Positions 942 to 63,445 of a DNA stretch of 64,000 bases are shown here, piece after piece; position 1 is the first letter of the stretch; every line of letters starts with the position of its first letter. Source of the stretch: a virus; the IMG/VR virus record IMGVR_UViG_3300032235_000792, one strand, 5' to 3'. Position numbers and translations under genes: made by a program. The notes under the pieces are model-generated. The model was given only the letters and a program-made list of their open reading frames with translations. It was not told where the DNA came from and ran no database searches.

Positions 942-1042
942 AGTTATATATGATATCTGTTGTAGTTATACAAGCCATTGTATTTACGAGTTAGTCGAGG
1001 GTAAAAGATAGGGTTTGGCCGCGAGCCCCATAGCCCCACTTC

Positions 1043-1312
1043 GTCCCCAACAGACCAACTGCCTGCCCATCGACAGACCAGCGCGCGGGTCCCAACAGAT
1101 CGGTCCACGCGTACCGAGCAATGTTAGGCCGCAACATTGCTCAGCGCGACAGGCCTGTTACTGGCCAACAGACTGTTTCCCTAGGGGGTTTTGAGGTGCC
1201 TGCTGGCCAACAGAGCTCCCCCGTTGGGCGGCGTAGCAGTGTCACAGACGTCTAGCTGCCAGCAGACCCGCTTAACAGACTGCTGGCGTAGGACCTGTGG
1301 ACTTAACAGACT
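1043..1312 (+). repeat. GC-rich non-coding cluster of AACAGA boxes with inverted repeats
   Basis: Exact AACAGA at 1049, 1094, 1167, 1209, 1274, 1305 plus 4 near matches; perfect 10-bp inverted repeat 1116-1142. Confidence 0.85.
1230..1244. repeat. conserved 15-mer GGCGTAGCAGTGTCA, copy 1
   Basis: Exact copies at 1230, 2296, 3709, 4368, 5130. Confidence 0.95.
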
Positions 1313-1535
1313 ACTCTTCTAGCATCTTGTTGATGGCCAGAGCTGCTCTGACTTCTGCTAGTAGCTCATCGTCATCACTGGCATAGGACTCGTACTCCTC
1401 TAACAGCTCTTGATCTGTCATATTGCGCAGCCCCGGAAAGTTACCGCCATAGAGGATATAGTCTCTGAGTTCAAAACAGCCATACATGTCATCGAACAGT
1501 ACATCCATCAGCTTGTTTCTAGTAACTTCGTCCAT
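1311..1535 (-). CDS. small acidic hypothetical protein
   Basis: 74-aa ORF with AGGAG SD. Confidence 0.8.
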   Translation of the reverse strand: MDEVTRNKLMDVLFDDMYGCFELRDYILYGGNFPGLRNMTDQELLEEYESYASDDDELLAEVRAALAINKMLEE

Positions 1536-1588: not shown

Positions 1589-2071
1589 CTAGCCTACTAA
1601 GTGACGTAGGTGCTCTGGGAGAGCGTCAACATTGATCTCTACTTTAGCTTCGGGCTTGATCTCTGCTAGTCTAGCATCAATCGCTTGTTGAACTTGTGTT
1701 TTAGTTTCAGCATCAGTAACCGTCTTGAGTAGAGCTTTAAGAGCTTTGATCTGAGCGTCACCAGAACCAGAGCGAGAACCTGGGTTTTTGGTGGTATAGC
1801 TCTGACCATTGTTGAACTGCGGGTTCTTTCTAATCCAGTTATCTAGTAGGCCAGAGACATACTTCTTAAGCTCGGAGTCAAAGGCATACTTATCACTAGC
1901 TTCGGCTGACATCTGGACTTGGCCAGAGCGGAAGCCAGCGACCAGCTTCTCTTTCATAGTATTCTTTTGCTCTGAAGTTATGATGTCGGACAGCACGACT
2001 TCACCGCCCAGCTCATAGTTAGGCACTACAGACATGACAACTTGAGTAACTGCATCTTTTTGACTAATCAT
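1589..2071 (-). CDS. unknown ~160-aa early protein, paralogue 1 of 3
   Basis: Shares GFRSGQxQMSxEASDKYAFDSEL, NWxRK and KNPGSRxGSGD with 3760..4248 and 5372..5857. Confidence 0.9.
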   Translation of the reverse strand: MISQKDAVTQVVMSVVPNYELGGEVVLSDIITSEQKNTMKEKLVAGFRSGQVQMSAEASDKYAFDSELKKYVSGLLDNWIRKNPQFNNGQSYTTKNPGSRSGSGDAQIKALKALLKTVTDAETKTQVQQAIDARLAEIKPEAKVEINVDALPEHLRHLVG

Positions 2072-2341: not shown

Positions 2342-2545
2342 CTAGAACCCTTGGGAGGTGAAATCCAACTCTCCATCTTCTTCATCGTAACTATCTTCTA
2401 CATATACTTCTAGTGTATCTTCGTCACTGAACTCGGCATTCATATCATCTAAGTCTGCCTGTTCGATAGCATCTCGTATCTCTTCCTCAGTATCGATGTC
2501 GTCCTCAAAGTCCTCGTATGAATCGAATAAGTTCATGCTTCTCAT
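2342..2545 (-). CDS. extremely acidic 67-aa protein (possible nucleic-acid mimic)
   Basis: 28 D/E versus 2 R; AGGAG SD. Confidence 0.8.
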   Translation of the reverse strand: MRSMNLFDSYEDFEDDIDTEEEIRDAIEQADLDDMNAEFSDEDTLEVYVEDSYDEEDGELDFTSQGF

Positions 2546-2578
2546 ATAACTCCTATGTTTATTTAGTTTTAAAGAAAT

Positions 2579-2594
2579 GAGCCATCCATGGCTC
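2579..2594 (-). promoter_or_regulatory. leader hairpin with ANGGA loop (CsrA/RsmA-type)
   Basis: GAGCC-ATGGAT-GGCTC on minus strand. Confidence 0.65.
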
Positions 2595-2601
2595 GAATAA
2601 C

Positions 2602-2829
2602 TTAGGCACAGTACTCACGAAGACGCTTGTTGTACTTGATTCTTAAAGCTTCAGCCTCAGCTTTTAGCTCAGCCGCCTTATCATCAGAGCTCGTCTTCAT
2701 AGCGTCAGCGAGTTTATTCCAGTAGGCTGATTTGAACTTAGCCAGGTGCTGTTCATGAAACTCGATCGCTCTAGGATTCTGGATGTCTTCAACTCTAGTA
2801 ACACCATTACATTCTTTAGATTTAGTCAT
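2602..2829 (-). CDS. hypothetical protein
   Basis: 75-aa ORF, GGAGG SD. Confidence 0.8.
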   Translation of the reverse strand: MTKSKECNGVTRVEDIQNPRAIEFHEQHLAKFKSAYWNKLADAMKTSSDDKAAELKAEAEALRIKYNKRLREYCA

Positions 2830-2871
2830 TTAACCCTCCCAAGGTTAGATCATCTACTAGATGATCATTTA

Positions 2872-2896
2872 ATTATGATATATTATAGAATCTGTT
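2872..2896 (-). promoter_or_regulatory. AACAGA-N13-CATAAT promoter
   Basis: Same geometry as the four TATAAT copies; followed by 5' hairpin GATCATCT/AGATGATC. Confidence 0.65.
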
Positions 2897-2904
2897 GGAG
2901 ATAT

Positions 2905-3222
2905 CTACAGACAGGCAGCCAGCCATCTTATTGTATTCTCAATATCTTCTCTATCTTTGATGTAGTCTTTGCCATCATGACAACCACAGCGGCTAGACAC
3001 AACCATATCATCATCTATGTGTATCTGGCATGGTGGACACTCATCATTCTCATACAGCCATTCGCCAGTGAAGTCTTCAAACTCCGCTTGCTCGCTCTCA
3101 CTTAGATGGGAATAGTCTGGTACATTCTTAAGATATGAGTATGCATGATCACAATCCCAGTCATACCCAATCTCTTTGTCACTTTCCATGAATAGCTTTT
3201 TCAAATCACCAAGTGTTTTCAT
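2905..3222 (-). CDS. acidic Cys-containing hypothetical protein
   Basis: Start moved to MKTLGD (GGAGG SD); CPPC and CGC motifs. Confidence 0.8.
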   Translation of the reverse strand: MKTLGDLKKLFMESDKEIGYDWDCDHAYSYLKNVPDYSHLSESEQAEFEDFTGEWLYENDECPPCQIHIDDDMVVSSRCGCHDGKDYIKDREDIENTIRWLAACL

Positions 3223-3238
3223 GTTACCTCCAAAGTTA

Positions 3239-3254
3239 GAGCCATCCATGGCTC
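3239..3254 (-). promoter_or_regulatory. leader hairpin with ANGGA loop
   Basis: Identical to 2579-2594; lies just upstream of the SD. Confidence 0.65.
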
Positions 3255-3262
3255 GAGTTTAG

Positions 3263-3616
3263 TTAGACTTTGCGGAACTGTAAGATACCGTAGTAGAGAC
3301 CGTTGCCAGAACCATCTTGCTCATAGAATAAGCTATAACCATAGTGCTTCATATATATCTCAATGGCTTCAAGTACACCATTAGTTTTACAGTTATCACC
3401 GAGCATCCAACTAACGAACTTGTCGCTCTCCTCCTTTTTGCCCCACAGTTCTTCATCGCTAAAATCATAGTAGACAACGATATCACTTGGGGCGAGATCA
3501 GCTTCATCACCAAGCGACGCCTCATCGTGGGTGATCACACTTAAGTTACCGAGCTTTGGGTAATAGTTGTAGTGGTTTAAGAACTTGCCGAGTGCACTTA
3601 TCATAACTTGATCCAT
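3263..3616 (-). CDS. hypothetical protein
   Basis: 117-aa ORF, GGAGG SD. Confidence 0.85.
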   Translation of the reverse strand: MDQVMISALGKFLNHYNYYPKLGNLSVITHDEASLGDEADLAPSDIVVYYDFSDEELWGKKEESDKFVSWMLGDNCKTNGVLEAIEIYMKHYGYSLFYEQDGSGNGLYYGILQFRKV

Positions 3617-3632
3617 AGTTGCCTCCGAGTTG

Positions 3633-3649
3633 GAGTCAGTCCGTGACTC
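3633..3649 (-). promoter_or_regulatory. leader hairpin with ACGGA loop
   Basis: GAGTC-ACGGACT-GACTC. Confidence 0.65.
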
Positions 3650-3662
3650 GATTAATATTGTA

Positions 3663-3687
3663 ATTATAAAAATATATAAAGTCTGTT
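3663..3687 (-). promoter_or_regulatory. AACAGA-N13-TATAAT promoter
   Basis: Conserved box, 13-nt AT-rich spacer, perfect -10. Confidence 0.75.
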
Positions 3688-3708
3688 AGAGTTTGTGTAG
3701 GTGTGAGC

Positions 3709-3723
3709 GGCGTAGCAGTGTCA
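3709..3723. repeat. conserved 15-mer, copy 3
   Basis: Exact match. Confidence 0.95.
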
Positions 3724-3751
3724 AAATAATAGGTGGGGCTTTCGCCCCACC
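3724..3751 (-). terminator. intrinsic terminator after paralogue 2
   Basis: GGTGGGGC-GAAA-GCCCCACC plus U-rich tail. Confidence 0.85.
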
Positions 3752-3759
3752 GTGGTGGC

Positions 3760-4248
3760 CTAGCCTAGCAGGTGGCGTAGGCTTTCAGGTATCAAGCTCG
3801 CATCGATCTCGATCTTAGGTTTCAACTCTTCAAGACGCTTATCGATCTCGACTTGGATGGTTGCCTTGACCGAAGGGTCGTTGACAGTACTCATCAATGC
3901 TCTCAGAGCTTTCAGCTTCTCGTCACCAGACCCGCTTCGTGATCCAGGATTCTTGGCTTGGTAAGTGTTGCCGCCGTTGAACTCAGGTGCCTTACGCAAC
4001 CAGTTGTTCAGTAGTCCGACACAGTACTTGCGGAGCTCGGAGTCGAAGGCATACTTGTCACTAGCCTCGCTCGACATTTGGATTTGACCCGAGCGGAACC
4101 CAGCGATCAGCATCGCCACAGCGTTCTCCTTGTCACTCACGGTGAACACCTCACTCACAGGTGTCTCGCCATTGAGAGTGTAGTTAACACCACGCTTAGA
4201 AAGAGTAGCTAACACGATAGAGACAGTTGCTTGACGTTGATTAACCAT
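3760..4248 (-). CDS. unknown ~160-aa early protein, paralogue 2 of 3
   Basis: Start moved to MVNQRQ (GGAGG SD; aligns with paralogue N-termini). Confidence 0.9.
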   Translation of the reverse strand: MVNQRQATVSIVLATLSKRGVNYTLNGETPVSEVFTVSDKENAVAMLIAGFRSGQIQMSSEASDKYAFDSELRKYCVGLLNNWLRKAPEFNGGNTYQAKNPGSRSGSGDEKLKALRALMSTVNDPSVKATIQVEIDKRLEELKPKIEIDASLIPESLRHLLG

Positions 4249-4324
4249 ACGAGATCCTCCCAAGGATTAAGCGCGCACGACATGTGAGCACTATTAGTTA
4301 ATTAATATAATTAAATAAGTTATA

Positions 4325-4382
4325 TATTTAATTATAAATAATATTAAAGTCTGTTAAATTATATAGCGGCGTAGCAGTGTCA
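4325..4382. repeat. 58-bp exact duplicate of 5087-5144 (promoter plus 15-mer copy 4)
   Basis: Direct comparison. Confidence 0.95.
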
Positions 4383-4402
4383 GTAGGCCTTGCGGCCTAC
4401 TG
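4381..4402 (-). terminator. hairpin (GCAA loop) after 4413 gene
   Basis: CAGTAGGCC-GCAA-GGCCTACTG; no U-tract, runs into the 15-mer. Confidence 0.6.
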
Positions 4403-4412
4403 CACCAGATAA

Positions 4413-4688
4413 CTAGACGACCAGTCCTTGGTCTTGGAGTTGTTGGTCAAGTGTCTTACCATCGTAGTTGAGTAAGTCACTACCATCGTTGAGATCAGTG
4501 AACATATCCTGCTTGACCTCGCTATAGGTCTGCACACACTCGGGATCCTCGTGGCACATGAACCACAGTTGACCGTTGATGCTGTAGACTTCGAAGTCGT
4601 AGATAGCGTGGTTACCGATGTGGACACAGCCGACATGGTTAGATTCAAAGTCTTCGTGGTTAAAGTTAGATGGATCGAAAGTTGTCAT
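4413..4688 (-). CDS. acidic hypothetical protein
   Basis: Start moved to MTTFDP (GGAGG SD). Confidence 0.8.
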   Translation of the reverse strand: MTTFDPSNFNHEDFESNHVGCVHIGNHAIYDFEVYSINGQLWFMCHEDPECVQTYSEVKQDMFTDLNDGSDLLNYDGKTLDQQLQDQGLVV

Positions 4689-4706
4689 GATTACCTCCAA
4701 GATAGA

Positions 4707-4722
4707 GAGTCGTCCATGACTC
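4707..4722 (-). promoter_or_regulatory. leader hairpin with ANGGA loop
   Basis: GAGTC-ATGGAC-GACTC. Confidence 0.65.
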
Positions 4723-4757
4723 AGTTAATTTATATTGATTGTTAAGATTTGTTAGGG

Positions 4758-5027
4758 CTACGCTTCGGTATCCCAGCGGAAGAGTAGCTCGTTGTACTTA
4801 GCTTCGCTGATCACCACCCAACTCCATGTGTTAAGGTAGCGGACCGCATGATTCTTCTTGCCAGTCATGCGCAGCGACTTGCCGTACATTTGGGACTTGG
4901 CTCGCTCTTTGATGACACCAGACTCTTTATGGCCGCTCAGCGAGTGCGACTCATACTCGTAAGAGTAAGGGTTGTTGTCAGTGGCGTCGATAGCACGGAC
5001 GAGCTTAATGAGTGACAATGATTTCAT
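4758..5027 (-). CDS. basic hypothetical protein
   Basis: 89-aa ORF, GGAGG SD. Confidence 0.8.
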   Translation of the reverse strand: MKSLSLIKLVRAIDATDNNPYSYEYESHSLSGHKESGVIKERAKSQMYGKSLRMTGKKNHAVRYLNTWSWVVISEAKYNELLFRWDTEA

Positions 5028-5042
5028 AGTACCTCCAAGTTG

Positions 5043-5059
5043 GAGTCAGTCCGTGACTC
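5043..5059 (-). promoter_or_regulatory. leader hairpin with ACGGA loop
   Basis: Within a 31-bp exact duplicate of 3628-3658. Confidence 0.65.
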
Positions 5060-5086
5060 GATTAATATAATAAATAATTTTAATTT

Positions 5087-5144
5087 TATTTAATTATAAA
5101 TAATATTAAAGTCTGTTAAATTATATAGCGGCGTAGCAGTGTCA
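5087..5144. repeat. 58-bp duplicate (promoter plus 15-mer copy 5)
   Basis: Identical to 4325-4382. Confidence 0.95.
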
Positions 5145-5184
5145 ATAGGTAAGCGGGCCATCATGGCCCGCATAACCTCGGAGA

Positions 5185-5277
5185 TCACTCAGCATCTTCG
5201 CTAAGCAATTCATAATCATCGTAATCAAGATAGCTTAAGTTATAATCATCATCTTCATTCATATTTATATCGTTCAT
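5185..5277 (-). CDS. 30-aa acidic micro-protein
   Basis: MNDINMNEDDDYNLSYLDYDDYELLSEDAE; GGGGA SD; followed by hairpin 5153-5171. Confidence 0.65.
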   Translation of the reverse strand: MNDINMNEDDDYNLSYLDYDDYELLSEDAE

Positions 5278-5342
5278 AATTTCCCCCATTAGTTATATCC
5301 GCTATTAAGTACCAAGATAGACATCTTAATACTTAATAGAAG

Positions 5343-5362
5343 GGAGGGACTTTCGTCCCTCC
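5343..5362 (-). terminator. terminator hairpin after paralogue 3
   Basis: GGAGGGAC-GAAA-GTCCCTCC. Confidence 0.8.
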
Positions 5363-5371
5363 AGTTAACCT

Positions 5372-5857
5372 CTAGAGTAGGTGGCGTAAGCTCTCAGGGA
5401 TCAGATCAGCATTGATCTCGATCTTAGGCTTAAGCTCTTCGATTCGCTTATCGATCTCAGATTGGATCGTAGCCTTGGTAGTAGGATCACTTACCTTAGA
5501 CATCAGAGCTCGTAGGGCTTTCAGCTTCTCATCACCAGATCCCGTTCTAGATCCAGGGTTCTTAGCTGTATAAGCATTACCACCGTTGAACTCAGGAGCC
5601 TTGCGGATCCAGTTGTTAACCAGACCAACCACATATTTCTTAAGTTCAGAGTCGAAGGCATACTTATCAGAAGCCTCAGAGGACATTTGTATCTGTCCAG
5701 ATCGGAAGCCCGCGACCAGCTTGTTGACAGCTTGTTCCTTGTCAGTTACCGTTAGGACATCTGCGATACATTGCTCACCGTTTAGGTTGTAGTCGATACC
5801 GCGCTCAGAGAGAACAGATAAGATAACAGATACAGTTGCTTGACGTTGAGATACCAT
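5372..5857 (-). CDS. unknown ~160-aa early protein, paralogue 3 of 3
   Basis: Clear paralogue; AAGGAG SD. Confidence 0.9.
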   Translation of the reverse strand: MVSQRQATVSVILSVLSERGIDYNLNGEQCIADVLTVTDKEQAVNKLVAGFRSGQIQMSSEASDKYAFDSELKKYVVGLVNNWIRKAPEFNGGNAYTAKNPGSRTGSGDEKLKALRALMSKVSDPTTKATIQSEIDKRIEELKPKIEINADLIPESLRHLL

Positions 5858-5875
5858 TGAGAACTCCTTGGTTAT

Positions 5876-5891
5876 GAGTCATCCGTAACTC
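5876..5891 (-). promoter_or_regulatory. leader hairpin with ANGGA loop
   Basis: GAGTT-ACGGAT-GACTC, 8 nt downstream of TATAAT. Confidence 0.6.
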
Positions 5892-7594: not shown

Positions 7595-7703
7595 ATAGTT
7601 CTTTTAAGTTATCAACAACTTATGCGGTAGGGGCCCCCTAACCGCTTCGCGGGACATTAAAAATGCTTGATAATATTATACTATGTTACAGTATAATAAA
7701 TGC

Positions 7704-8390
7704 ATGGACAACATAGTCAAGACATACTTAGAACAAATGGGTGCAATACCGATGCTTAGCGTGAAGGAAGAGGCGCGCATCGCTAAATTAGCATTTGAAG
7801 GTGATCAAGAAGCTAGGAAGATACTCATAGAGTCTAACTTGAGACTAGTTGTTTCTATCGCTAAGAAATACACCAGCTCAGGCATGGACTTACTAGACCT
7901 CATCCAGGAAGGTAACATCGGCTTGATGAAAGCAGTTGAAAAATTTGAGTATAAGCGCGGACATAAGTTCAGTACTTACGCTACATGGTGGATAAGGCAG
8001 GGAATAACAAGATCTATTGCAGATTCCGGTCGTACCATCAGACTGCCTGTTCATATGGTAGAAACAGTTGGCAAGATATTCCAGTCTATACGTGAAATAA
8101 TATACGACACCGGAAAAGAGCCAAGTGTTGCAGAGTTATCTAAGTATATGGGAATAACTGAAAAGAAATTAAGAGAAGCACTTGATGTAGCCAAGATACC
8201 AGTCTCGCTAGATATGAAGATATATGATGACTCGGCAAGCTTAATGGATAAAGTCCCTGATATAAAATTAGATTATCATTTAGATAGAGTCGATACGGCA
8301 GATCTCTCTAAGAATATAAAGATAATATTGAAGACTCTCACCCCAAGGCAAGAAAAAATACTGAGAATGAAGTTTGGGATTTCAGATTAA
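7704..8390 (+). CDS. RpoD-like sigma-70 factor lacking region 4.2
   Basis: Region 1.2, region 2 ([41 protein letters not shown]), RTIRLPVH and region 3 present; ends at LRMKFGISD; probable leaderless start 6 nt after TATAAT. Confidence 0.92.
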
Positions 8391-42970: not shown

Positions 42971-45634
42971 ATGTCAGTAAATCAAATTAAAGGCAAGTTT
43001 GTTAAATTATCTAACAATGAGGCCTTATCGTCAAAAAATCAAGCTGGTGATGGAAACGTAGACATCCTGAAGGTTGATACCTCTGATGAAGTTATACTAT
43101 TAAAGCTTCCTATAGTAGATGATGGAGTTAGCCCTTCGTCTAACGTATCTACTGAGGCTTATGTTGATCAAGAGATCGCATCAGTAAATGATAGAATTCA
43201 AGATCACGTTGACGGTGTTGCTGAAAAGCACAGCGCAGCAGATATTGAAGTATCTCCATCTGGTGATCTATCTTCTACAAACATTCAATCAGCGCTAGAA
43301 GAAATTCAGAACGATGCCTCTCAAGGGATCTCTGACGCTGCTACGGCGCAATCTGCAATAAACAGCCACATTGCTGATTCTACAGATGCACACGATGCTT
43401 CTGCTATATCAGTATCACCTACTGGTAACCTTGGATCTACAGACGTTCAAGCTGCTCTACAAGAGTTGCAAGGTGACGTTGACGATATCAACGATACATT
43501 ATCTAATTTAAGTGCAGAAGCTTCGGCTATCACAGTTGTTCCAGCTGGTAATATTGGATCTACTAATGTTCAAGCTGCTATTGAAGAATTAGATTCTGAA
43601 AAAGTAGCTAAAGCTGGCGACACAATGACTGGCTTTCTTACATTGCACGCTGATCCAACGGCAGACATGCATGCCTCTACAAAGAAGTACGTTGATGATG
43701 AAATCGGTGCTCTTAGCTTTGAAGCTTCTGCCATCTCCGTTTCTCCTACTGGAAACCTCGGATCTACTGATGTTCAAGCGGCTTTACAAGAGTTACAAGG
43801 CGATGTAGACGGAATAAACACAACTATTGGAAATCTTAGTTTTGAAGCAGATGCAATAGCTTTTACCCCTGCTGGCGATATTGGTTCTACCGATGTTCAA
43901 GCTGCTATTGAAGAATTAGATTCTGAAAAAGTAGCTAAAGCTGGCGATGAAATGACTGGCTTTCTTACTTTACATGCAGATCCAACATCTGATTATCATG
44001 CTGCAACTAAGAAATACGTTGATGCTGTTGCTGAAGGACTTCATGTTCATAGCCCAGCTAGATTACTTGCAGACTTCGATCTAGACGGCTCATACAATAA
44101 CGGTGTTGACGGTGTTGGTGCTTACTTAGACGTAAGTGGATCTCCTATTGCAGGAATCGATGGCGTTTCTTCTTTTAATGTCGGAGACAGAATCATAGTA
44201 GCATTACAAAATGGTAATGTGCTTGACCCTGAAAACGGTGTTTATTTTATTGCTGATTCGGCAGACATAAACGGCAACGGCGATATTATAAAATTAACAA
44301 GAACATCTGATTTTAATACTCCTACTGAAATGGCTGGCGGAGACTTTATCTTTGTTCAAGATGGTTCTCAATATGCTGATAGTGGTTGGGTAATGACAGA
44401 AACTGTTACATCAGTTGGTGTTACACCTGTTAAGTTTGTTCAGTTTTCTGGTGCAGGAACATACCTTCCAGGTGATGCATTGTCTTTAACTGGTGGTGAG
44501 TTTGATGTACTTTTTGATAATTTTACAATCGGCATTAACGGGGTTAACCAATTAGAGGTTAAAGACGATTCTATAAATGAATTTAAATTACAAGATAATT
44601 CAGTAACTGGTGCCAAATTAAACATGGATGTAGCTGGTGACGGCTTAAGCCAAGGTATGATGGGTGAGTTACAAGTTAATGTAGATTCGATGTCCCTTGA
44701 AATTTCAATGGACGCACTCAGAATCAAAGACCAGGGTGTTACTGAGTTTAAACTAGGTGATTTATCTGTATCTACTTTTAAATTGCAAGATGACTCTGTA
44801 ACTGCTGCCAAATTAAACATGGATGTAGCTGGTGACGGTTTAATCCAAGGTATGATGGGTGAACTACAGGTCAACACTGACAACATGTCCCTTGAAATTT
44901 CAATGGACACACTTAGAATCAAAGATCAAGGTGTTACTGAATTTAAACTAGGTGATTTATCTGTTTCTACTTTTAAACTACAAGATGACTCTGTTACTGC
45001 AGCTAAGATCAACATGGATGTAGCTGGTGACGGTTTGATCCAAGGTATGATGGGTGAGTTACAAGTTAATGTAGACTCAATGTCTATAGAAATTTCGATG
45101 GACACACTTAGAATCAAAGACCAGGGTGTTACTGAGTTTAAACTAGGTGATTTATCTGTATCTACTTTTAAATTGCAAGATGACTCTGTTACTGCAGCTA
45201 AGATCAACATGGATGTAGCTGGTGACGGTTTAATCCAAGGTATGATGGGTGAGTTACAAGTTAATGTAGGTTACGGGCTTGAAATACTATCTGATGCTGT
45301 TAAAATTAAGCCTGAATTCACAGGTACTGCAGACATATCTATAAGCAGCAATGGTTTAAGCATAGTAAATAGATTCAACAAAGAAGTGTATCAAATATCT
45401 TCAACTTTAGGGGCTGGTGCATATTTTGATCTTGCTTTTGAAATTGAACCTAACTCTATGCATGCATTTGTTGATCGTCTAGCAATTCATGAAGGCATAG
45501 ATTACGACTATACTATCAGTACTGTAGGTAGCGTTAGCCGAGTTACTTTCATAAATGCCTTAGTCACCCCAGGTCAACAGCAATTAACTGCTGGTGATAC
45601 TGTTTTCTTCAGTTATCAGAAAAAAGCAAATTAA
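42971..45634 (+). CDS. long tail fibre protein with internal repeats
   Basis: STDVQAALQEL, KAGDTMTG..ATKKYVD and SVTAAKL repeats. Confidence 0.8.
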   Translation: MSVNQIKGKFVKLSNNEALSSKNQAGDGNVDILKVDTSDEVILLKLPIVDDGVSPSSNVSTEAYVDQEIASVNDRIQDHVDGVAEKHSAADIEVSPSGDLSSTNIQSALEEIQNDASQGISDAATAQSAINSHIADSTDAHDASAISVSPTGNLGSTDVQAALQELQGDVDDINDTLSNLSAEASAITVVPAGNIGSTNVQAAIEELDSEKVAKAGDTMTGFLTLHADPTADMHASTKKYVDDEIGALSFEASAISVSPTGNLGSTDVQAALQELQGDVDGINTTIGNLSFEADAIAFTPAGDIGSTDVQAAIEELDSEKVAKAGDEMTGFLTLHADPTSDYHAATKKYVDAVAEGLHVHSPARLLADFDLDGSYNNGVDGVGAYLDVSGSPIAGIDGVSSFNVGDRIIVALQNGNVLDPENGVYFIADSADINGNGDIIKLTRTSDFNTPTEMAGGDFIFVQDGSQYADSGWVMTETVTSVGVTPVKFVQFSGAGTYLPGDALSLTGGEFDVLFDNFTIGINGVNQLEVKDDSINEFKLQDNSVTGAKLNMDVAGDGLSQGMMGELQVNVDSMSLEISMDALRIKDQGVTEFKLGDLSVSTFKLQDDSVTAAKLNMDVAGDGLIQGMMGELQVNTDNMSLEISMDTLRIKDQGVTEFKLGDLSVSTFKLQDDSVTAAKINMDVAGDGLIQGMMGELQVNVDSMSIEISMDTLRIKDQGVTEFKLGDLSVSTFKLQDDSVTAAKINMDVAGDGLIQGMMGELQVNVGYGLEILSDAVKIKPEFTGTADISISSNGLSIVNRFNKEVYQISSTLGAGAYFDLAFEIEPNSMHAFVDRLAIHEGIDYDYTISTVGSVSRVTFINALVTPGQQQLTAGDTVFFSYQKKAN
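43396..44030 (+). repeat. ~327-bp internal duplication in fibre gene
   Basis: ASAISVSPTGNLGSTDVQAALQELQGDVD...TKKYVD occurs twice. Confidence 0.8.
44578..45270 (+). repeat. 195-bp tandem repeat, ~3.5 copies (65-aa Met-rich unit)
   Basis: AACATGGATGTAGCTGGTGACGG at 44621, 44816, 45011, 45206. Confidence 0.95.
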
Positions 45635-59078: not shown

Positions 59079-60338
59079 TCAGATCGTAGTGCTGTCTGAA
59101 TAGTACACTGGCAAAGCTTTGCAGATATCAATAACTTCTTGTTTTAATTTTTTTGCAACATCTAAATCTCCAGCATTCTTCAAGCAAGTAATAATCAGCC
59201 TAGCGACTTCTTTCATCTCTTGCTCTTTAAATCCACGAGTAGTTAAAGCTGGAGTACCTAAGCGAATACCTGATGTAACGAATGGGGATCGCTTGTCTCC
59301 TGGAACCATATTCTTATTACAAGTAATACCGATGTGTTCTAGGTAGTTAGAGGCATCTTTACCTGACATGTTAAAGCTATCTGTTTTAGCTAAGATAAGA
59401 TGATTGTCAGTCCCACCGCTAACAACCGCAAGTCCTCCGGCTATAAGTTCTGTTGCCAAGACTTTAGCGTTAATAATAACCTGCTGCTGATATGCCTTAA
59501 AATCTTCAGATAGTGCTTCCTTAAATGCCACAGCCTTAGCAGCAACAACATGTTCGAGAGGTCCACCTTGAATGCCAGGAAAAATATTACTGTTCACTTT
59601 CTTAGCGATGTCTTCGCTATTTGTGAGTATGATTCCGCCCCGTGGTCCTCTCAGTGTTTTATGTGTCGTAGATGTTACAACATCTGCCAAGCTAACTGGA
59701 TTCTGGTGCAGTCCTGCAGCAATTAGACCAGCAATATGTGCCATATCTACCATTAGATATGCACCAACTTCATCTGCAATATTTCTAAATTTCTCAAAAT
59801 CAATTGATCTTGGGTATGCAGATGCACCAGCAATAATTAGCTTAGGTTTTTCTTTAATAGCAATATTTCTTATGTTATCATAATCTAAAACTTCAGTAGA
59901 TTCATCAACACCATAAAAACTAGTAGCAAATAGTTTACCAGAAAAATTAACTGGACTTCCATGAGTAAGATGTCCACCTTGACTTAAGTCCATGCCTAAG
60001 ATTTTGTCTCCACTGTTTAGTAGTGAAAAATATACTGCCATGTTTGCAGAAGATCCAGAGTGTGGCTGTACGTTAGCGAACTTACTTCCAAATATTTGAT
60101 TTAGCCTAGATATAGCGAGTGCTTCGATCTCGTCAACAATATCACAACCGTTGTAATACCTTTTACCGGGATAGCCTTCTGCATACTTATTTGTAAGGAT
60201 CGATCCTTGCGCTTCCATTACTGCTTTAGAGCAATAGTTTTCAGAAGCAATAAGCTCTAACCCTAGTTCTTGTCGTTGAGATTCTAGTTGTATAAGTTTA
60301 TGTATTTCTGAATCAGATGAATCAAGATTACTGTTCAT
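59079..60338 (-). CDS. glyA: serine hydroxymethyltransferase
   Basis: [54 protein letters not shown] (PLP lysine). Confidence 0.98.
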
Positions 60339-62742: not shown

Positions 62743-63306
62743 TTATAGATCTCCTAGGTCAATGTTTACGTTAACATGACTAGGGTCAACACTCGGTCCT
62801 TTTTCTGATGCCTGCTGCTCAAGAATAAGAGCCTCCCAATCTAATGTAGGGTGCGAATCTGCATATTTCTGTTGTTTTCTATATTCAGATGCAGACATAC
62901 TGCCATATTTAGGAGCAGAATCAGATTCGGCATTTTCTATTTCATAGATAGAAAAGAAAACACGTTTGCCAGCGTTAGCTATAAATTCTTTCCAAGAAGA
63001 TTCAAATTCAGACAATGTTTCAATTCTTCCAAATTTCTTCATGCTTTTATATACAGACTTAACAACATAATCAGATGGATAATGAGCTTTAATAGCTTTC
63101 TCTAAATAGACTAAAGCATCTTCCATAGGAACTTTGGACTTGTTCATTGAATGAAAGAGTATATCAAAGTTGCCTTCAACTGCAGCTTTAGATCTGTCCA
63201 TGTCAGCAAGGTCAGCCTTCCACTTCATAAAGATAAGTTCAGCTTTACTACTCATGGCTAACCTCCAAGACTTCAGTCTTCTTGGATTTAAGGTTAGTAA
63301 TCTCAA
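62743..63306 (-). CDS. hypothetical protein (likely start MSSKAE ~63255)
   Basis: Upstream of the helicase; GGAGG SD. Confidence 0.7.
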   Translation of the reverse strand: MRLLTLNPRRLKSWRLAMSSKAELIFMKWKADLADMDRSKAAVEGNFDILFHSMNKSKVPMEDALVYLEKAIKAHYPSDYVVKSVYKSMKKFGRIETLSEFESSWKEFIANAGKRVFFSIYEIENAESDSAPKYGSMSASEYRKQQKYADSHPTLDWEALILEQQASEKGPSVDPSHVNVNIDLGDL

Positions 63307-63445
63307 TTTTGGCAGAATTATTTATCTTGTCAATAAATAATAGTCGGATTTCGTACTCTCCATTGATAATGAAAGGTTTTTTCTTACCTAACCACCATAC
63401 GAGAGTATCTTGAAGCTTGTCCTTAAAACTAGACATGTTTTCCAT
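63248..63445 (-). CDS. small hypothetical protein
   Basis: 65 aa; AGGAG SD. Confidence 0.7.
   Translation of the reverse strand: MENMSSFKDKLQDTLVWWLGKKKPFIINGEYEIRLLFIDKINNSAKIEITNLKSKKTEVLEVSHE

Follow-up and report, generated by a model that had tools for sequence, protein, structure and literature searches.

The 64,000-nucleotide stretch from the IMG/VR virus record IMGVR_UViG_3300032235_000792 (hereafter, the window) raises the question of why a small hairpin with GGA in its loop is repeated beside the ribosome-binding sites of a series of small genes between positions 2,579 and 5,891, and of what could read it. From the letters alone it had been proposed that six early-gene leaders carry hairpins of the type bound by CsrA/RsmA, and that the early programme of the phage is wired in this way to the Csr system of its host. 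Our comparison of sequences indicates that the hairpin is a widespread, conserved and strand-specific RNA element with no entry in Rfam. The hairpins may act at the RNA level, as protein-binding elements on the mRNAs of early cassettes, the likeliest reader being a host protein of the CsrA/Rsm family.

The hairpins of the window and their family in relatives

The six hairpins of the original prediction, called here H1 to H6, are all present on the minus strand, which is the mRNA strand, and each one serves a small gene (Table 1). The loop GGA is found in all of them and the exact hexaloop ANGGAX in four, the other two (H2 and H4) having the 7-nt loop ACGGACU or, in an alternative fold, a 6-bp stem with the loop CGGAC. 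The covariation described for the stems (a C-G/U-A swap and one G-U pair) is real, and the closeness of five hairpins to a GGA-containing Shine-Dalgarno (SD) sequence was confirmed, with gaps of 6-8 nt in these five and of 24 nt in H6; from loop GGA to SD GGA there are 16-17 nt in five cases and 34 nt in H6. The description as six early-gene leaders holds for H1 to H4, which follow a promoter-like motif, and not for H5 and H6, which are intercistronic and lie after stop codons; the early timing of these genes is itself something that we infer from the layout. Stem stability is low (-3.5 to -7.8 kcal/mol), and the hairpin is part of the minimum-energy fold in five of the six leaders, with pairing probabilities between 0.02 and 0.99. 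The pattern GAGYYAYGGAYRRCTC gave 4 matches against 0.00 expected from 100 shuffles, and when a covariance model was run on the 64 kb, the six hairpins were its top six matches; they are the sole elements of their kind in the window. The bare 8-mer CANGGANG was not enriched (20 observed versus 16.6 expected), in such a way that the enrichment holds for the hairpin context only. The two leader hairpins lacking GGA that had been put forward for comparison are also real, and a third one was found.

Searches with megablast and tblastn brought up no isolated phage similar to the region, the sole match to an isolated phage being the tail sheath, with 33% identity to that of Myxococcus phage Mx1. Two sets of metagenomic loci were gathered blind to the hairpin, 80 through a 160-aa early protein encoded in the region and 117 through a 15-nt box located between its genes, and the family was defined as an A[ACU]GGA[ACU] hexaloop on a 5-bp stem. 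As many as 37 sense versus 5 antisense instances were counted in the protein-fetched loci, and 44 versus 6 in the box-fetched ones (81 versus 11 in both sets together). In the protein-fetched set AnGGAn was the most frequent class of sense-strand hexaloop, above the loops of terminators. In close relatives (77-89% protein identity) the matching leaders have these hairpins too, and their changes (ACGGAU to AAGGAU, GAGCC to GAGCU, AUGGAU to AUGGAC) fall at loop positions 2 and 6 or keep the pairing, while a relative with 62% identity has GUGACC-ACGGAU-GGUCGC downstream of the same gene. The stems of the family have no common sequence (GGAGC/GCUCC, AGGAC/GUCCU, GACUC/GAGUC, CACUC/GAGUG and others), and the loop-closing pair, which was not a selection criterion, is C-G in 24 of 29 diverse members. 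The loop GGA is kept in relatives while the stems covary, and the lack of conservation that had been named as a reason to abandon the idea was not observed. The 100% pairing and the covariation in one of the alignments (A2) are a product of the choice of rows and are not taken as independent evidence.

A covariance model across relatives, suggested with the original prediction, was built from 29 members and gave 37 matches in 640 kb; apart from a single weak one they lie within cassette regions, and there were none in two complete relatives free of hairpins. The element is restricted to the cassette array, at 61.5-63.6 kb of a 153-kb relative, at 2.1-4.7 kb of another one and at 2.5-5.9 kb here. 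A search of Rfam with the hairpin produced no match at E<=5.

The sequence context was analyzed for 77 unique members. An SD sequence and a start codon lie downstream in 30 of them, and in 16 of these 30 the distance from loop GGA to SD GG is 16-19 nt. Another 19 precede a TGACAC box, often on stems of 9-11 bp that take the place of the GNRA-loop terminators of other phages, and the remaining 28 have other contexts, around half of them appearing on inspection to be chance or coding matches. Nearly all genuine members start a few bases after a stop codon, and therefore the element is a marker of gene boundaries, more than just an adjunct to the ribosome-binding site.

Correspondence with CsrA/RsmE sites and clues to the host

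In a high-affinity site for RsmE/CsrA, a hexaloop of the form ANGGAX sits immediately on top of a stem, and in hcnA this loop is ACGGAU (Duss et al. 2014). The consensus for CsrA from SELEX (systematic ligand evolution by exponential enrichment) is RUACARGGAUGU, mostly in 6-nt loops closed by AC/GU pairing, and a single CsrA dimer is able to bridge two sites separated by 10-63 nt. In the phage family the consensus is C-A-N-GGA-Y-G on a stem, with the SD GGA 16-19 nt downstream, and every sequence and structure feature of a high-affinity CsrA/RsmE site is present in it. As in the glgC and hcnA leaders, an A-N-GGA-X hexaloop stands on a short stem, closed mostly by C-G, and a second GGA is found in the SD sequence, at the 16-17 nt of the window hairpins and so inside the bridging range; the loop of H1 is identical to that of hcnA. 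Unlike those sites, the phage hairpins are on phage mRNAs, and for many family members, found at cassette 3' ends, there is no SD sequence as a partner. This coincidence weighs heavily with us, since convergence on the CsrA optimum by an unrelated protein would have to cover eight positions. Recognition by a host CsrA/Rsm-family protein is the best single explanation that we can offer, with a probability of around 45%, and it is drawn from the mimicry of the sequence. Concerning the proposed wiring to the host Csr system, the features of the site and the conservation of the loop speak for it, and the many members lacking an SD sequence and the lack of a CsrA gene in the phages do not. The check for such a gene was negative: PF02599 did not turn up in any of ten records of related phages, of which six are at least 91% complete, and a motif scan for CsrA found none in the 64-kb window, with some 99 kb of the genome lying outside it.

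If CsrA is the reader, a single dimer would bridge the loop and the SD sequence in those hairpins with 16-19 nt between GGA and GG, and this bridging would repress translation of the gene that follows. Along with the leader copies on abundant early transcripts, those at cassette 3' ends would pull CsrA off its host targets, as a sponge borne by mRNA. Repression and sponge together would make a timer, in such a way that the genes led by a hairpin would be translated once CsrA had been titrated. In its full form, this proposal would have a family of uncultured phages of 150-177 kb carrying high-affinity CsrA decoys in the leaders and 3' ends of their early mRNAs, whose burst of transcription on infection would serve as a CsrB-like sponge and reset the post-transcriptional control of the host while the same sites delay the translation of selected early genes, which we regard as doubtful.

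The host was approached through genes of the phage. Its glyA, encoding serine hydroxymethyltransferase, is closest to Bdellovibrionota among the sampled genomes (best identity 70%, with 29 of 61 genomes at E<=1e-160), followed by Gammaproteobacteria (62%, 3 of 101) and a Bacillota-type phylum (62%, 4 of 81) at the same cut-off, and by Bacteroidota, with 56% for one genome scored without cut-off and none of 101 at E<=1e-165. This similarity is a weak clue that points to Bdellovibrionota, a group in which csrA is common (46 of 61 genomes); csrA was also detected in 35 of 81 genomes of Planctomycetota. An RpoD-like sigma factor of the phage has 34% identity to a Flavobacterium sigma, and best matches of 47-54% in six genomes of other groups (two Bdellovibrionota, Colwellia, a betaproteobacterial metagenome-assembled genome (MAG), a Verrucomicrobiae MAG and Paenibacillus); an Atlas look-up of this protein returned viral clusters only. 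It has regions 1.2, 2 and 3 and no region 4, and its gene is conserved beside a NUDIX gene in relatives. The 160-aa family was not found in the bacterial genomes searched, a scan of bacterial genomes for the 15-nt box gave chance matches except for one phage contig in a Cytophagales MAG, and the tRNA search of the window detected none. A CsrA-bearing host is plausible.

The cassette array around the hairpins

An uncultured myovirus with a tail sheath gene is the source of the window and occurs in lake-water metagenomes of 14 studies; the paralogues of the window itself sit on a contig of 163,160 bp, and the genome has around 163 kb. Between 1300 and 5900, small minus-strand genes are arranged as cassettes in the order terminator-like hairpin, 15-nt box TGACACTGCTACGCC, promoter-like motif, leader hairpin, SD sequence and gene. 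The promoter-like motif is TTAACAGAC followed after 12 nt by TATAAT (AACAGAC-N12-TATAAT), with TTAACA 15 bp from TATAAT; a scan for the sigma-70 consensus gave 9 sites versus 10.8 expected, none of them at this repeated motif. Across the 117 IMG/VR stretches, whose phages have a GC content of 35-50%, the box TGACACTGCTACGCC is invariant; it is mostly multi-copy and lies directly 3' of a terminator-like hairpin, with a lineage-specific promoter-like motif downstream (CCCGATACTATA, ACAGACTCGATATA and others). In relatives an ANGGAN hairpin is often found immediately upstream of it. Myxococcus phage Mx1 lacks the box, and a literature search on it gave no match. The coordinates of all these features are collected in Table 1.

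Table 1. Positions of the hairpins, the genes that they serve and other features of the window (SD, Shine-Dalgarno sequence; positions of SD sequences are given 5' to 3' on the minus strand).
Feature	Position	Strand	Gene served	Remarks
H1, GAGUU-ACGGAU-GACUC	5876-5891	-	5372-5857	SD AGGAG 5868-5864, 7 nt downstream; hairpin ~9 nt downstream of promoter-like TATAAT (5905-5900)
H2, GAGUC-ACGGACU-GACUC	5043-5059	-	4758-5027	SD GGAGG 5036-5032, 6 nt downstream
H3, GAGUC-AUGGAC-GACUC	4707-4722	-	4413-4688	SD GGAGG 4698-4694, 8 nt downstream
H4, same sequence as H2	3633-3649	-	3263-3616	SD GGAGG 3626-3622, 6 nt downstream
H5, GAGCC-AUGGAU-GGCUC	3239-3254	-	2905-3222	SD GGAGG 3231-3227, 7 nt downstream; 8 nt after stop codon of gene 3263-3616
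H6, same sequence as H5	2579-2594	-	2342-2545	SD AGGAG 2554-2550, 24 nt downstream; 7 nt after stop codon of gene 2602-2829
Array of hairpin-served small genes	2342-5857	-		
Leader hairpin without GGA, GAUCAUCUA-G-UAGAUGAUC	2848-2866	-		Comparison element, outside the family
Other leader hairpins without GGA	2090-2105, ~4270-4290	-		Comparison elements, outside the family
15-nt box TGACACTGCTACGCC	1230-1244, 2296-2310, 3709-3723, 4368-4382, 5130-5144	-		Five copies bounding cassettes
15-nt box TGACACTGCTACGCC, other copies	14181, 31163	+		
GC-rich non-coding end of array	1030-1320	-		About seven RTCTGTT motifs
160-aa early protein, three paralogues	5372-5857, 3760-4248, 1589-2071	-		
RpoD-like sigma factor	7683-8390	+		
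CATGGATG repeats	44623-45215	+		Every 195 nt, within ORF 42971-45634
glyA	59079-60338	-		
65-aa protein	63248-63445	-		

Neither Pfam nor PHROG has a family for any of the six genes served by a hairpin. At least 282 relatives of the 160-aa early protein occur in metagenomes; it has no Pfam, PHROG or PDB fold match, its predicted model being all-helical. An ATG within the loop of H5 is in frame with gene 2905-3222 (3249-3220, minus strand), so that callers of open reading frames (ORFs) may start this gene 9 codons early; the SD sequence favours a start at 3222. The RTCTGTT motifs at the end of the array are the reverse complement of the AACAGAC of the cassette promoter-like motif. Far from the array, the periodicity of CATGGATG indicates a tandemly repeated domain in a fibre-like protein.

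Two proteins of the window were considered as possible readers and rejected. The 65-aa protein is highly conserved (99 relatives at 56-92% identity) and also present in relatives with no hairpins; it does not resemble CsrA, with no match in Pfam, a probability of 0.2% by hhalign against a CsrA alignment, and a predicted fold (one helix and a meander of four strands) for which Foldseek and VIA-align gave no CsrA among the matches. Just 9 close relatives are known for the 89-aa protein encoded downstream of H2, a distribution too narrow for a reader.

Among lake strains whole cassettes differ, and the gene content of the array varies among close relatives. In contigs of other lakes 4240 is joined to 4707, or 3231 to 4707, joints that represent loss or replacement of a cassette with the breakpoint at the edge of H3, and in one natural variant a 162-aa gene gains an ANGGAN leader instead of its usual hairpin. 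Among the 40 variable positions listed, of 61 in all, none falls inside the six hairpins; about one would be expected by chance, and hence this is uninformative. A single contig from an RNA run maps inside gene 5372-5857, for which DNA carry-over is possible and from which transcript ends are not resolvable.

Competing explanations and known systems

Several observations weigh against CsrA as the reader. H2 is identical to H4 and H5 to H6, in such a way that the six copies amount to four independent sequence types, and the recombination of lake strains occurs at hairpin edges, so that the similarity of the copies within the genome comes partly from cassette exchange; the stronger evidence is that distant relatives conserve the element. 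No enrichment of the hairpin was detected in three complete relatives (G001-G003). Since 19 of the 77 members precede the TGACAC box and not an SD sequence, a position that classical CsrA repression leaves unexplained, translational gating cannot be the whole function. As for the host, the glyA clue is a single gene compared across unevenly sampled phyla; a related phage contig was binned with a Cytophagales MAG without csrA, binning being itself weak evidence of a host. Only 7 of 81 genomes of Verrucomicrobiota and 1 of 151 in a betaproteobacterial order have csrA, and therefore many common lake bacteria appear to be without it.

The reader could instead be another RNA-binding protein or an endoribonuclease, of the phage or of the host, that happens to recognize the A-N-GGA-N loop for processing or protection at gene boundaries or for translational control. 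The position of the element right after stop codons, with or without an SD sequence, agrees with such a reader, its patchy presence among relatives fits the gain and loss of a phage gene, and the ten phage records without CsrA point in the same direction. A screen of presence and absence among the ORF families of the cassette regions gave no candidate gene, none being common to the loci with hairpins and absent from the genomes free of them, and neither the 160-aa nor the 65-aa protein has an RNA-binding fold match; together with the convergence on the CsrA optimum that it would require, this leaves another reader unlikely. Slightly further down in our estimation is that the hairpin is a structural part of mobile cassettes similar to the PeSLs described below (a 5' stabiliser, an attenuator or a terminator), its loop being kept by recombination or as a weak SD-like standby site. 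The array of promoter-like motif, hairpin, SD sequence and ORFan has this layout, the whole-cassette differences with joints at 4707 are consistent with it, AAGGA loops are SD-like, and in high-GC relatives ANGGAN caps stems of 9-11 bp where other phages have GNRA-loop terminators. Recombination, however, cannot explain a loop kept across phages with 40-60% identity in the early protein and wholly different stems, and other leaders in the same arrays have hairpins with unconstrained loops. AUGGA and ACGGA are poor mimics of an SD sequence, such mimicry leaves the invariant first A unexplained, and the low stability of the window stems does not favour a structural role. An inverted repeat acting as DNA, as a folded single strand or as a duplex site for cassette recombination in the manner of integron attC, is very improbable: the element is strand-biased and bounds cassettes, and the joints of natural variants coincide with the hairpin edge, but ordinary homologous recombination also yields joints at shared repeats, the array showed neither an integrase nor a recombinase, and the preferred spacing of 16-19 nt to the SD sequence suggests RNA and translation.

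Whatever the reader, the element is conserved and strand-specific in abundant phages of freshwater, soil and sediment, and the hairpin offers a concrete probe for its partner protein and perhaps for the host. If CsrA reads these sites, the lineage would couple its early programme to a global RNA regulator of the host through cis elements alone, with no CsrA gene of its own.

Three other known systems can be compared with the array. Lambda-type nut sites, in which boxB is read by N, also place a stem-loop of 5 bp downstream of early promoters, after the first gene and upstream of terminators. The phage loop differs in not being a GNRA-like pentaloop, and neither a boxA-like conserved flank nor an N-like protein was identified. 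With the sponges of the Csr/Rsm systems (CsrB, CsrC, RsmX/Y/Z) the phage shares many GGA-loop hairpins on abundant transcripts that could titrate CsrA; a sponge is a dedicated multi-hairpin non-coding RNA with its own Rfam family, whereas the phage carries one or two hairpins per coding transcript and, as said, these match no Rfam family. The overall arrangement is similar to that of the PeSLs, the promoter-early stem-loop cassettes of RB49 and phi1, two T4-type phages (Arbiol et al. 2010, PMC2839356). These too are repeated regulatory cassettes, composed of stop codon, promoter, stem-loop, SD sequence and start, that flank small ORFans in an early region of high plasticity, and exchange between them reshuffles the genes, as it does here. 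PeSL promoters fit the sigma-70 consensus, while the phage motif AACAGAC-N12-TATAAT is non-canonical by the scan; and the G/C-tract stem-loops of PeSLs are terminators with no conserved loop, whereas the small phage hairpin keeps its loop and favours a certain distance from the SD sequence, and its cassettes carry the separate 15-nt box. If the CsrA reading is true, the array would have a mixed layout, with mobile promoter cassettes and regulator-binding hairpins combined.

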